A DNA stretch of 64,000 nt from Octopus sinensis. Its lineage: Eukaryota. The DNA lies in NCBI RefSeq assembly GCF_006345805.1, contig NC_043009.1:6820001-6884000 (forward strand), read 5' to 3'. Below are positions 16,605 to 47,205 of the stretch, one piece after another. Under the pieces are notes generated by a model, which saw only the letters and a list, made by a program, of their open reading frames with translations, ran no database searches and was not told where the DNA came from. Position numbers and translations under genes: made by a program. How positions within the stretch are numbered: the stretch's first letter is position 1; each line of letters opens with the position of its first letter.

Positions 16605-17190
16605 AAGGCGGTGAATTAGCAGACTCGTTAAGACGCCGGGCAAAGAGGCTTAGCGGTATTTCGTCTGCCGTTACGTTCTGAGTTCAAATTCCGCCGAAGT
16701 CGACTTTGCCTTTCATACTTTCGGGGTCGATAAATTTAGTACCAGTTGTGCACTGGGGTCGATGTAATTGACTTAATCCTTTTGTCTGCCCTTTTTTCTC
16801 CCCTCTGTGTTTAGCCCCTTGTGGGTAATAAAGAAATAGGTATTTCGTCTGCCGCTACGTTCTGAGTTCAAATTCCGCCGAGGTCGACTTTGCCTTTCAT
16901 CCTTTCGGGGTCGATAAATTTAGTACCAGTTGTGCACTGGGGTCGATGTAATTGACTTAATCCTTTTGTCTGCCCTTTTTTGTCCCCTCTGTGTTTAGCC
17001 CCTTGTGGGTAATAAAGAAATAGGTATTTCGTCCGTCGTTACGTTTTGAGTTCTAATTCCGCCGAGGTCGACTTTGCCTTTCTTTCCGGGTTCCATAAAA
17101 TAAGCGCCAGCTGAATACCGGAAATGATGCAACCGACTTACCCACTTCCTCCGAAATTGCTGGCTTTGTACCAAGTTTTAAACCGATATA
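16605..17190 (+). repeat. SINE family A head followed by 184-bp tandem units
   Basis: GGTATTTCGTC unit starts at 16655, 16839, 17023 (184-bp spacing). Confidence 0.9.
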
Positions 17191-18663: not shown

Positions 18664-20572
18664 TATGTTTGACTTTTGCTTTATATGTACAAGTTGGCTC
18701 CAAGTCTCACCCAGAGACCTCAAGAGACAACAGGTTGGAAGTTCCTGTTGTTGTTATGCCTAGTGTGCCATATATTTGGGGGGTGGGGATGTTTACTAAT
18801 GAATGTCTAAAAAAAAAAAAAGGTTTGTTTTTTTTTTAAACCGAAAATTATGTTTGTTTTAAACCTTGAGATTACATAGAGAGTATTTTGCGTAGGATAT
18901 GAGCAGTTCCCATGAGCACTATCTTTTGAACTTCTGCCATTTTTGGGTTTCCTGGTATCTGAGTTAGGTAGCGATCAGCCCCTTTTGCTATCATACCCAG
19001 GGCACCTATGACAACAGGTAGTGTTTTAGTCTTCAGCTTCCACATTTTGCTGATTTCTATTTCAAAATCTTTATATTTGCTCAGTTTTTGGTAGGTCTTG
19101 ACAGATACGTTATATCGATTGGGACAGTCATATCAATGAGGAGGCATGTTCTTTGTTTGAAGTCTTTCAATATGATGTCTGGCCTATTTGCATCTATCTT
19201 CTGTCAGTTTGAATGGTGAAGTTCCAGAGGAGTGAGATGTGGTCATTTTCAAGCACTGGGGGTGGTTTGTGTCCCACCAGTTTTTTCATGGGGCAAATCC
19301 AGGTTTTTACAGATTACCCAGTGAATATATTGTGCAGCTCTATCGTGCCCGTTGAGATACTATGTAGGCGCTAGAAAACTGCACTTGGAGACCACATGGT
19401 CAATGGTTTCATTTTGTTGCTTGCATACACGACACGTTGGACTGCTTCTGATCTTTAATATGTTGGCCTGGTAGTTTCTTGTTGGTAGGCATTGATCTTG
19501 AGCTGCTATGATAAACCCCTCCGTTTCAGATTTTAAGCCAGAGGCCATTAGCCATTGATGGGTCAGGGCTTTGTCGATATCTGCATTATTCGCTCTCTTT
19601 GGGTATTTGCCATAGAGAGGTTTTTCTTGCCATTTATTATTCAGAATATCTAAGGCCGCAGTTTTGGCACGGGTTTTCATGCGCCTAGCTTTTTCTGTGC
19701 TTGTTTCTTGTATATCTATCTCTAATTCCGAAATTGGTGTATTCGGAATTCACTTAGATATTCCTTTGCCTGTTTTGTGACTGAGTATGATGCTTTCTTG
19801 TTTTCATGTTTTGAGACAAGTTTTAGCATCCAGTCCTCAGAGTTTTTCAGGTAGGTGTCTAGGTCAATTGTAGCAATCTTCATGTTATTGCCAGTTGCAA
19901 AAGACCACGGCCTCCCTCTTTTCTTGGCAGATAGAGTCGTTCTGTATCTGCCTTAGGGTGGTGCATTCTATGCATTGTCAACAGTTTCCTTATTTTTCTG
20001 TCGAGCTGACATATTTCAGTAATTGACCAGTAACAATATTGAAACTGTAAGTCACGACTGGTATAGCTAATGCATTGATGCTTCGATCCTGTTTCTTGCA
20101 TTCAGCTCTGTCTTGAGTATTGCTCTCACTCTTCGATAGCATTCTCTCCTGATCCTTTCCTTCATCTCTGAATGCCTTATTCCGTTGCCTTCAATTACCC
20201 CTAGGTACTTGTAGCTCTCCGCTGGGTCTAGTTCTTTTATGACATTCTGTGGTCAAGGTTAACGTTAGATGTTTCTGTCATTTTTCCTTTGATAAAGGTA
20301 GCCTTTGCACATTTATCGAGGCCGAATTGCATTCTGATGTCGTCACTGAATTGTTTGACTATCGCTAGTAAGCCCTTGAGTTGTTGATCATTTTTGCAAA
20401 AAGCTTTAAATCATCCATGTAAACGAGATGATTTTATTTTTATCAAACATTTTATACCCGTACTGCGCGTCATTGAGCAGCTTTGAGAGAGGTATTAAGG
20501 ATAAACGAAAGAGGAGTGGTGACAGTGAGTCACCCTGGAAAATGCCACACGAAATTTTTACATCACCAGCAT
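18664..20572 (-). mobile_element. 5'-truncated R4/Dong-clade non-LTR retrotransposon (RT, CCHC knuckle, RLE), with frameshifts and stops
   Basis: GIFQGDSLSPLLF and YMDD (RT); RLYLPRKEGGRGLL; ETEGFIIAAQDQ; CRVC..ETIDHVVSKC; NRPDIILKD..LIDMTVP..KLSKYKD; both ends in (ATT)n. Confidence 0.93.
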
Positions 20573-40786: not shown

Positions 40787-40835
<49 letters not shown>

Positions 40836-40836
<1 letters not shown>

Positions 40837-41030
40837 GGTAGTAAACACATAAATGTGAAACAAGGTGGAACAAGAGTACTCAAATACCAGAGGTAGAGTA
40901 ATATGCTTTATTTAAAAGCAGCAGAAATTTAACAAAAGCTGTTACTCGGAGTTTCACGTTCCCGTTCGTCGGGAACGTGAAACTCCGAGTAAATTTTGTC
41001 AAATTGCAGATGCTTTTAAATAAAGTATAT
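40836..41030 (-). mobile_element. (TA)n-embedded fold-back element with hammerhead core
   Basis: Perfect 23-bp inverted arms 40942-40964/40970-40992, imperfect extension to 40901/41030; minus strand CCGACGA ACG-GGAA-CGT GAAAC TCCGA GTA. Confidence 0.7.
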
Positions 41031-41041
41031 ATATATATATA

Positions 41042-42259
41042 TATCCGTAATAATGAAGGGTGAAATTAATTAATTTGGAAAAATTATCAATTACACCAAG
41101 TAGTCTTCGGCATGTAAAAGCCTCATTCGAGGAAAATTTAAGTAATACTAAGCAATAAGGGTTTAGCAACGAGTTGCCTTACCACATACCGATTTAGAAA
41201 TAGCAGTCAAAGGGTTATAGCTATTTCTTCTACTAAAAAGGGAGATCTCAGTAAAAACAGCATTTGGAAGGCAGACACAAACAGGTAAGAGAGAATGAAT
41301 TGACTGCAATCTATCATACATTTTTTTAGTTATCCACGGACGTACGTTTCGAAATCAAGTTTTTAGGAAAGCATAAGAATTAAATATTAAATATTAAATA
41401 ATTCTATCTATTAATTATTTAATATTTAATATTTATCTTATGCTTTCTAAAAACTTGATTTCGAAACGTGCGTCCGTGGATAACTAAAAAAATGTATGAT
41501 AGATTGCAGTCAATTCATTCTCTCTTACCTGTTTGTGGTCTGCCTTCCAAATGCTGTTTTTACTGAGATCTCCCTTTTTAGTAGAAGAAATAGCTATAAC
41601 CCTTTGACTGCTATTTCTAAATTCGGTATGTGGTAAGGCAACTCGTTGCTAAACCCTTATTGCTTAGTATTACTTAAAGTTTCCTCGAATGAGGCTTTTA
41701 CATGCCGAAGACTACTTGGTGTAATTGATAATTTTTCCAAATTAATTAATTTCACCCTTCATTATTACGGATAACCATATTTTATCTCAGTAGATGACCA
41801 CAGCATCTTGTTTTGGCTACACGCGGGTGGGAAGGGGCTGTTGACACAATCGTTTCATTCACAAATTGAATTCGGTGATACCAGTGCGGATTCTAGCTCG
41901 CTCTGATACTGAGTTGAGTTGGTGCCTTCTGGTATCTCAAAATTCAATATATAATCATTTATGATTATAGTATTCTACGCTGAAGAGAAAAGAAGTTTCG
42001 GTAAGATAGAATTATTTAATATTAATATTTATTCTTATGCTTTCCTAAAAACTTGATTTCGAAACGTACGTCCGTGGATAACTAAAAAAATGTATGATAG
42101 ATTGCAGTCAATTCATTCTCTCTTACCTGTTTGTGTCTGCCTTCCAATGCTGTTTTTACTGAGATCTCCCTTTTTAGTAGAAGAAATAGCTATAACCCTT
42201 GACTGCTATTTCTAAATTCGGTATGTGGTAAGGCAACTCGTTGCTAAACCCTTATTGCT

Positions 42260-42262
<3 letters not shown>
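41042..42262 (+). mobile_element. Non-coding HHR-bearing retroelement (retrozyme/Penelope-like): inverted arm plus ~1.5 direct repeats of a 598-nt unit, flanked by (TA)n
   Basis: ~360-bp inverted arms spanning 41042-41773; 41413-41665 repeated at ~42010-42262; GAAACGT(A/G)CGTC at 41463 and 42061. Confidence 0.75.
41974..42078 (+). ncRNA. Type I hammerhead ribozyme with extended stem II
   Basis: Stem I TCTACG/CGTGGA; core CTGAAGA (41980-41986); stem II GAAAAGAAGTTT...AAACTTGATTTC; GAAA (42061-42064); palindromic stem III ACGTACGT; predicted cleavage after GUC at 42072. Confidence 0.7.
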
Positions 42263-42305
<43 letters not shown>

Positions 42306-43468
42306 TATATATATATATATATATACACAACTGAAAGAGTTTCTAATAGTTTCATGCTTCTATGATATCTGATCAGACATATATAATGCATAAACAGAGC
42401 CTGAAATATAGCTTTACGATATATGGGGTATTTTATAAATATACCCGTTCAAGTATCATAAAGGCATGAAATTATTTGTGGCTGCTTCGGTTGCGTATTT
42501 ACATCGATATATGCGTGTCTGTGTGCCTGTGTGCCTGTGTCCCCGTAATATAGAGGTACGTCCAAATCGATTTATAGAAAGTTATGTAACTTGATTAAGT
42601 AACATAAATATTCATGTCAATTTCATCGACTAAACTAGTGATGGTGCTGCCCCAGCATGGCAACACTCCAGTGACTGATAGAAGTTAAAAAGAAGAAGAA
42701 GAAGAAAAGAAACACTAGTTAGATGAATATCGGGAAAAAATATTTTAGTCTTTATCTAAATAAATAATGTTTTCTGTGTGTCGTTAATTAATTCCAAGCT
42801 TCAGGAAAATTACAAACAAAAATTTGTCCATAATATCTTAGCATTTATGGCTTCTTCGGTTCTTGGGAAATGAAAAGGTCAACTTAACATTACCCACGGA
42901 TTGAATCGATGGATCGATAAGATGTATAGATTTGATTGATGAGATGGATTAGTTAGACACTATAACTGCGCAATAACAATTTATTATTCGAAATTATCGA
43001 ATTATCAAATGAAATCTTAGTGTTGTCGTTGTTGTTGCCGTTGTTGTTGTTGTTGTTGTTATTCTTTCTATTTGTTGTACTCAAGTTAACGTTAGAATTT
43101 ACGCGGAGAGCAATTAAAAAATCTAATTAGAAAAATAATATGGAACGTGCAATAGAAAATGGCTGTCGATGACTAATATTATTTTAATAGCTTCATGTTA
43201 ACATCGATGTAGTGTATTCCAAGCATGACCATCTTATTTTCCAGAAACTACGATATCCATTATGTTACTTCTTGTTTTACAAAATAGTATCTGATAAAAT
43301 ATAGAGCTGGTTGCTAATTTTAGCTGGTTCAACGACTGGAATTTGACCCATCTCATAGTTTCATACATATTATTCATAATGCAGTTCCGGCTCCTCCTTT
43401 GGCCATACCATTCATAATATTGCGAAGATTTTCACCCATTTCATACATTAATATTATCTATAAGTAAA

Positions 43469-46524: not shown

Positions 46525-47205
46525 TCAAATTCCGCTGAGGTCGACTTTACTTTTCATCCTTTCGGGATCGATTAAATAAGTACCAGTTACGCACTGGGGT
46601 CGATATAATCGACTTAATCCGTTTGTCTGTCCTTGTTTGTCCCCTTGTGGGAAGAAAAGAAATAGGTATTTCGCCTGCCGTTACATTCTGAGTTCAAGTT
46701 CCGCCGAGGTCCACTTTACTTTTCATCCTTTCAGGGTCGATTAAATAAGTACCAGTTACGCACTGGGGTCGATATAATCGACTTAATCTGTTTGTCTCTC
46801 CTTGTTTGTCATCTCTGTGTTTAGCCCCTTGTGGGTAGTAAAGAAATAGGTATTTCTCCTGCCGTTACGTTCTGAGTTCAAATTCCGTCGAGGTCGACTT
46901 TACTTTTCATCCTTTCAGGGTCGATTAAAAAAGTATCAGTTACGTACTGGGGTCGATATAATCGACTTAATCCGTTTGTCTGTCCTTGTTTATCATCTCT
47001 GTGTTTAGCCCCTTGTGGGTAGTAAAGAAATGGGTATTTCGCCTGCCGTTACGTTCTGAGTTCAAATTCCGCCGAGGTCGACTTTGCTTTCATCTTTTCG
47101 GTGTCAATAAATTAAGTACCAGGGAAACACTGGGATCGATGGTATCGACTAGTCCTATACCACCGCCAATTTTGAGGCCTCGTGCCTATAGGAGAAAATA
47201 TTATT
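46525..47205 (+). repeat. Tandem array of 184-bp SINE family A units
   Basis: GGTATTTC unit starts at 46665, 46849, 47033 plus a partial first unit; last unit ends in an alternative tail. Confidence 0.9.

Follow-up and report, generated by a model that had tools for sequence, protein, structure and literature searches.

Non-LTR retrozymes were defined by Cervera and de la Pena in 2020 (PMC7229834), and circular RNAs have been shown for them in coral, mussel and axolotl. In the same account Penelope-like elements are proposed as the mobilisers of retrozymes, for which they are called a 'strong candidate'. A study of frogs (Li, Clavereau and Pollet 2026, 10.64898/2026.07.22.740005), whose sample as described contains no molluscs, reports retrozymes with pLTR homology; it favours local amplification, leaves the insertion mechanism unresolved, and describes cleavage in only one of nine predicted frog retrozymes.

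The Penelope protein of the anole element Poseidon PAc nicks and extends both strands of its target (PMC11167929). Reverse transcription has two internal starts, both downstream of the hammerhead, and the stretch between them forms a tail, a behaviour called unique to these elements by the authors. In vitro, insertion proved independent of hammerhead cleavage and drew mainly on uncleaved RNA as template. Inverted arms, one-sided tails of 30–40 bp and a bias towards (TA)n have been described for Penelope-like elements (PMC8557442), and circles have been proposed as templates for more-than-unit copying (PMC4209133). The retrozyme class is thus known, and a Penelope link has already been proposed; what is new is the unusually clear record of the insertion mechanism that one family has left. 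The locus described here is read, on balance, as a retrozyme inserted by a Penelope-like reverse transcriptase (RT)–endonuclease copying a predicted, ribozyme-made RNA circle.

The element in the window

The window is a stretch of 64,000 nucleotides of Octopus sinensis DNA (NC_043009.1, positions 6,820,001 to 6,884,000), from a microsatellite-rich genome of 2.7 Gb. In it, an inverted arm (41042–41409, minus strand) stands head to head with a direct arm (41413–42261, plus strand) inside (TA)n. As the first-pass annotation had stated, (TA)n runs are present on both sides, at 41026–41041 in the sequence on the left and at 42260–42325 in the repeat listing on the right. Unit positions are numbered q1–q598, q1 being 41475, the first base after the predicted cleavage site. 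The direct arm begins with a 5'-truncated piece (41413–41474, unit 536–598), continues with a complete monomer of 598 nt from cleavage site to cleavage site (41475–42072), the predicted circular RNA, and closes with a partial unit (42073–42261, q1–192) that stops at a 'short' 3' end. The inverted arm consists of q530–598 followed by q1–299 and holds the third hammerhead 3' half of the locus (GTC at 41339–41341, minus strand); as it ends at a 'long' 3' end, q299, it carries a tail of about 100 nt.

Repeat comparison returned the 598-nt spacing of the direct repeat that had been claimed, and the upstream hammerhead 3' half does end at 41474, with a loop III of GTGC instead of GTAC. That this hammerhead had lost its 5' half to an inversion is a reading that has to be given up: nothing was damaged, the left arm is a separate 5'-truncated copy, and the two-armed arrangement is the usual form of insertion (61 of 112 loci). 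The statement that the element contains no open reading frame of 60 aa or more stands for the tandem unit, which is stop-free over 54 codons at most; the inverted arm has one stop-to-stop frame of 63 codons, whose first Met lies only 53 codons ahead of the stop. An ORF search of the 598-nt element found no RT plus GIY-YIG frame of the kind carried by autonomous Penelope-like elements.

Other repeats lie nearby. A separate short two-armed insertion of another family occupies 40835–41025 in the same (TA)n tract; in this family (40 of 960 candidates scored) the core of the hammerhead-like motif reads CCGACGA or CTGACGA, and five loci for which both arms are listed show one short and one long end with a tail of about 70 nt. 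The window also contains a LINE-type ORF fragment with a zf-RVT domain (19360–19749, minus strand, E 1.7e-06) and a SINE-like repeat of 184-bp tandem units (16655–17082 and 46525–47140, 2.3 and 3.4 copies).

A complete type I hammerhead motif, a predicted ribozyme by sequence, pair check and covariation, spans 41974–42078 on the plus strand, with predicted cleavage after 42072. Stem I is formed by 41974–41979 and 42073–42078, and is followed by the core CTGAAGA (41980–41986), a stem II hairpin with internal loops (41987–42060), GAAA (42061–42064), the palindromic loop III ACGTACGT (42064–42071) and the GTC cleavage triplet (42070–42072). The CUGANGA and GAAA core, the NUH site and the three stems of type I hammerheads are therefore all present. 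Sequence and pair check agree in placing these parts where they had been claimed; stem II, put at about 74 nt, measures 74 nt, and ranges from 60 to 83 nt across subfamilies. Two checks that had been proposed gave no support. Rfam returned no match at gathering score within the window, and the hammerhead is absent from the 28 matches at E<=10, probably owing to its long stem II; the miRNA-type hairpin matches in that list are due to the inversion. Folded alone, the 116-nt region is no more stable than its shuffles (z 0.18). The hammerhead-constrained fold lies only 1.1 kcal/mol above the minimum free energy.

An unconstrained co-fold of two hammerhead copies gives a double hammerhead whose intermolecular stem III has 8 bp, at a predicted −41.6 kcal/mol against 2 x −14.6 kcal/mol for separate copies. 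The 598-nt unit folded as a circle reaches −155.6, against −122.7 +/- 6.5 for 30 shuffles (z about −5). Conservation of core and stems across genomic copies had been named as a further test, and stems I and II do covary. Among 26 distinct hammerheads picked from the subfamilies, pairing is found in 95.8% of cells, against 25–44% in slid controls, and two-sided changes occur at five pairs (17 cells) of stems I and II (shuffles: 0/500 for cells, 17/500 for pairs); stem II pairs of ambiguous register were omitted, and as the sequences are related and stem III is fixed by the search pattern, these counts are taken as support and not as a probability. A conserved GTAAG in stem II prompted the idea of an intron, which was rejected: there is no acceptor before GAAAC, and GTAAG pairs inside the stem. 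Judged from its sequence, the predicted hammerhead of the 598-nt unit is probably an active ribozyme.

The family and its relatives in the host genome

The unit has at least 251 matches genome-wide (39 of 576 candidates scored), the listed full-length ones being 95–99% identical, and arrays reach 19.3 units. The exact long-stem-II hammerhead pattern matches 1,514 times and the reversed pattern not once, so the hammerhead is not a product of chance; a pattern for older subfamilies matches 481 times against once for its control, a few of the matches belonging to other families. Matches, arrays, covariation and ORF limits bear out the multicopy, tandem, non-coding element that had been described, with its monomer of about 598 nt and conserved type I hammerhead. 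Tandem hammerhead units, absence of coding capacity and dispersal in many copies are the marks of non-LTR retrozymes, and the 598-nt unit is a young family of that class. Sequence contigs of seven runs, of guessed or unknown kind and none recorded as RNA, contain the unit; as the control flank is uncovered even in the deepest run, they do not bear on expression.

Several relatives share the genome. Family B, a homologous sister, has a unit of 531–561 nt, a 25-nt stem II and mostly a GUU triplet, and is 63–69% identical to the 598-nt unit over about q90–292. Family D came to light through a downstream motif, without use of the hammerhead pattern; its stem II is 53 nt long, its stem I is different yet fully paired, and its loop is a palindromic GCGC. 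The region common to the sister families (41564–41780, plus strand, unit about 90–306) contains the GAAATAGC/GCTATTTC hairpin, CCCTT motifs and both zones in which 3' ends fall; it is presumably the region of RT binding and initiation. The common hairpin–CCCTT motif occurs 6,966 times in the genome, in some cases antisense.

Other hammerhead families of this genome have a stem II of 51–61 nt, and a long stem II is not unique to the 598-nt family. The 25-nt stem II of family B and the conservation among subfamilies indicate that the long stem II is real and conserved, yet dispensable across the superfamily. Locus L104 (6897–7990) contains a third retrozyme-like family; its units measure about 535 nt and have a stem II of 51 nt and an AATT loop, and its ends are two-armed. 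Further hammerheads, with a stem II of 54–61 nt, were seen at loci L103, L108, L139 and L143. At locus L036 (1110–1700), nine family A units directly follow an inverted arm and a direct piece of family B, which reflects either a nested insertion or a switch of template from one family to the other. At locus L043 an expanded A run stands right after the cleavage site in all units, together with an array-wide variant.

Insertion anatomy and the copied template

Insertions were mapped at 112 loci, a non-random sample made up of best matches or first-listed places. Their 173 sense 3' ends fall mainly into two internal zones about 196 and 290–306 nt past the cleavage site, which together take 162: 101 lie at q185–205, 61 at q280–312 and 11 elsewhere. 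In the window copy, the short zone corresponds to 41666–41676 (plus strand, unit 192–202, mostly 196) and the long zone to 41765–41780 (plus strand, unit 291–306); they are the putative first and second RT starts. (TA)n adjoins 166 of the 173 ends. The two zones are combined in a regular manner, since 51 of the 61 two-armed loci have one short and one long end (two have two short ends, none has two long ends, and eight have one off-zone end), while the 51 one-armed loci have a short end in 43 cases, a long end in five and another in three. In family B the ends lie at homologous positions and are short plus long at 18 of 21 two-armed loci, seven of 34 loci cut by a locus edge having been excluded. 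The 173 5' and inner ends are scattered. Five apparent 'q1' ends suggested a pile-up at the cleavage site, but these extend 3 to about 20 nt further; on inspection none lies exactly at the site, and five fall within unit positions 2–9.

Short and long ends with a one-sided tail are the Penelope 'tail' signature. Together with an inverted 5'-truncated arm and an AT-rich target, the two fixed internal 3' ends make up the features of Penelope mobilisation, and it is very likely that the 598-nt family is mobilised in this manner. The lengths of the two arms are independent of one another (rho 0.19, 38 loci; the short-end arm is the longer in 20 of the 38). On this ground L1-style twin priming, in which the first cDNA would be blocked, was rejected, and so was fold-back copying of either arm from its partner. 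A target-site duplication of the kind present in some retrozymes would be hidden within (TA)n flanks. In the one-armed arrays at loci L032 and L046, the host flanks form an inverted duplication of 20–35 nt beyond the (TA)n.

Penelope-like elements reside in the same genome. There are at least 147 GIY-YIG matches, from 150 of 5,029 candidates scored, and near-intact elements have RT–GIY-YIG frames of 775–781 codons. Their CxxxxCxxC linker resembles that of Neptune or Nematis, and they end 3' at (TA)n with tails of 28–40 nt. Comparison of the unit with 38 GIY-YIG loci, with 100 loci including those 38, and with one element's 3' end found no DNA homology to an autonomous pLTR, giving only neighbouring retrozyme copies and weak AT-rich matches. 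The Penelope-like link suggested earlier is thus upheld by insertion anatomy at 112 loci, but not by sequence homology in up to 100. A CCCTT motif that precedes the short end in one RT–GIY-YIG element is shared with the unit, which is suggestive only. In an abundant young Penelope-like family (L101 1674–5377; L105, L110, L115), the 781-codon RT–GIY-YIG frame is preceded and partly overlapped by a frame of 479 codons; CCAAT and TGACGTC boxes recur in the pLTR of this family, which also has a hammerhead-like core in which U3 and A8 are swapped. At locus L033 (948–2287 and 8440–10000) an array lies in (TA)n between the 3' ends of two facing Penelope-like elements.

A record of the template is kept in the variants within arrays, which were compared in 313 segments from 45 young loci, with columns near gaps and q535–565 masked. 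Divergence by substitution is 0.33% inside one arm, 0.40% across the two arms and 1.11% from locus to locus; the older subfamilies show 2.1% between arms and 9.8% between loci. The low divergence between arms relative to that between loci indicates that both arms derive from one type of template. Of the 39 loci covered by at least three units, 13 have private variants that run through the array (22 counted); the largest array has one in 15 of 16 units, in both arms, and another array in 10 of 10. 'Private' here is relative to the 45 loci compared, and sibling arrays may exist outside the sample. The array-wide variants comprise 12 A>G/T>C and four C>T/G>A changes, against 19 and 41 among single-unit variants (Fisher p 0.003). 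This difference suggests that array-wide variants arose before insertion, singletons including assembly errors. A>G editing found no support as their source (seven A>G against five T>C, p 0.77).

A circular monomer, copied by rolling circle, is the simplest account of these observations and is modestly favoured as the usual template. Private variants shared by units and arms, and a cleavage site free of 5' ends, favour a circle over an uncleaved multimer, although the second observation fits uncleaved RNA equally well. Variants seen once per arm count against the circle, since a single monomeric circle does not predict them: at four loci a unit-level variant occurs once in each arm, at equal rank at L182 and L184 and one rank apart at L039 and L042, and at L042 a further variant is fixed in one arm only.

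The strongest competing explanation keeps Penelope-type priming and takes the uncleaved multimeric transcript of an array as the usual template, with a hammerhead that cuts rarely or just releases transcripts and with circles formed seldom if at all. The equal-rank variants of L182 and L184, the exact junctions and the lack of 5' ends at the cleavage site all agree with it, as does the finding that hammerhead mutants of the anole element left in vitro insertion unaffected (PMC11167929). It is nevertheless unlikely, if still to be taken seriously: private variants in nearly every unit of an array require a recent one-unit template, repeated 5'-truncated copying should shorten arrays whereas near-invariant arrays of 9–12 units exist, and 80 testable singletons are not shared at equal rank in the other arm.

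A second explanation, that short Penelope-type insertions later lengthened locally, as minisatellites do, through unequal crossing-over or gene conversion, is improbable. The partial tandem at the start of every array could seed such growth and the arm-specific variant of L042 would suit it, but partial variants within arms are mostly non-adjacent (six cases listed), array-wide and single-unit spectra differ, array-wide variants are common to both inverted arms, and long arrays with almost no divergence lie at many dispersed loci. Jumping of the RT between ends of linear, hammerhead-cleaved monomers, giving concatemers without a circle, would account for single-template variants no less well than a circle, and for the 9-nt insert at the cleavage site in one junction of L039, but can largely be set aside, with no 5' end in 173 exactly at that site, five near it, and 196 of 200 unit junctions exact.

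With the circular template preferred, insertion may be pictured as follows. Transcription of an array of 598-nt units would probably fall to Pol II, since the sense strand has three T5 runs, which argue against Pol III. Neighbouring hammerheads are predicted to pair through the palindromic loop III and to cleave after GUC, and the monomer released would be ligated into a circle, as in other retrozymes. A Penelope-like protein, its activities taken from the anole enzyme (PMC11167929), may then bind the conserved hairpin region and nick both strands of (TA)n. Synthesis of cDNA would begin at the two places inside the unit where ends are observed, some 196 and 300 nt beyond the cleavage site, and each cDNA would circle the same RNA for a fraction of a turn to about 12 turns before stopping at scattered points, as the observed arm lengths and 5' ends suggest. 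Head-to-head joining of the two cDNAs would yield an inverted array with a tail of about 100 nt on one arm; alternatively, a single arm would be kept. The fullest form of this account is offered tentatively: the arrays may be footprints of a Penelope RT dimer, two rolling-circle cDNAs taken off one ribozyme-made circle with a separate fixed priming site for either target strand, in a host with a community of 530–600-nt retrozymes, several with a long stem II hidden from standard models.

Comparison with known systems

The literature covered, which includes few subscription papers and repeat databases, yielded no account of the 598-nt family, of elements of this type whose hammerheads have a long stem II, or of retrozyme tails with two ends. 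For the insertion of animal retrozymes, the family brings the Penelope-specific two-start tail signature onto a retrozyme, and the shared variants of each array record its template. A young, abundant family and near-intact RT–GIY-YIG elements in one genome make the choice between circle and multimer, and the role of the Penelope hammerhead, directly testable. Hammerhead surveys that allow just a short stem II can overlook motifs by the thousand in a single genome.

Like the metazoan non-LTR retrozymes (PMC7229834; 10.64898/2026.07.22.740005), as described there, the family forms non-coding tandems of low GC with one type I hammerhead per unit, no LTR, PBS or PPT seen, a highly self-paired predicted circle and co-resident Penelope-like elements. 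It differs in a unit of about 600 nt, against 170–400 nt for invertebrate circles and 51–972 bp for vertebrate families, in a stem II of 60–83 nt and in its (TA)n targets; its circle is only predicted. Two-armed inverted insertions with two fixed ends, present here, do not figure in those descriptions, and in contrast to the findings for frog retrozymes with pLTR homology, comparison with up to 100 loci showed no homology to an autonomous pLTR.

With the minimal, dimer-cleaving hammerheads described from the pLTRs of Penelope-like elements (PMC4209133) it shares a short stem III, a palindromic loop, a G10.1–C11.1 pair and a predicted dimer, whereas its stem II of about 74 nt with internal loops replaces helices of 7–8 bp, and its 6-bp stem I has a distal extension. 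Compared with EN+ Penelope-like elements, as reported for Poseidon PAc (PMC11167929) and for Neptune, Nematis and Naiad (PMC8557442), the family is without an RT or endonuclease ORF, has tails of about 100–110 nt instead of 30–40, and runs to about 19 tandem units. With these same elements it has in common partial tandems, an inverted 5'-truncated arm and a tail on one side, the two internal ends that lie downstream of the hammerhead, a palindromic loop III and targets that are AT-rich or (TA)n.
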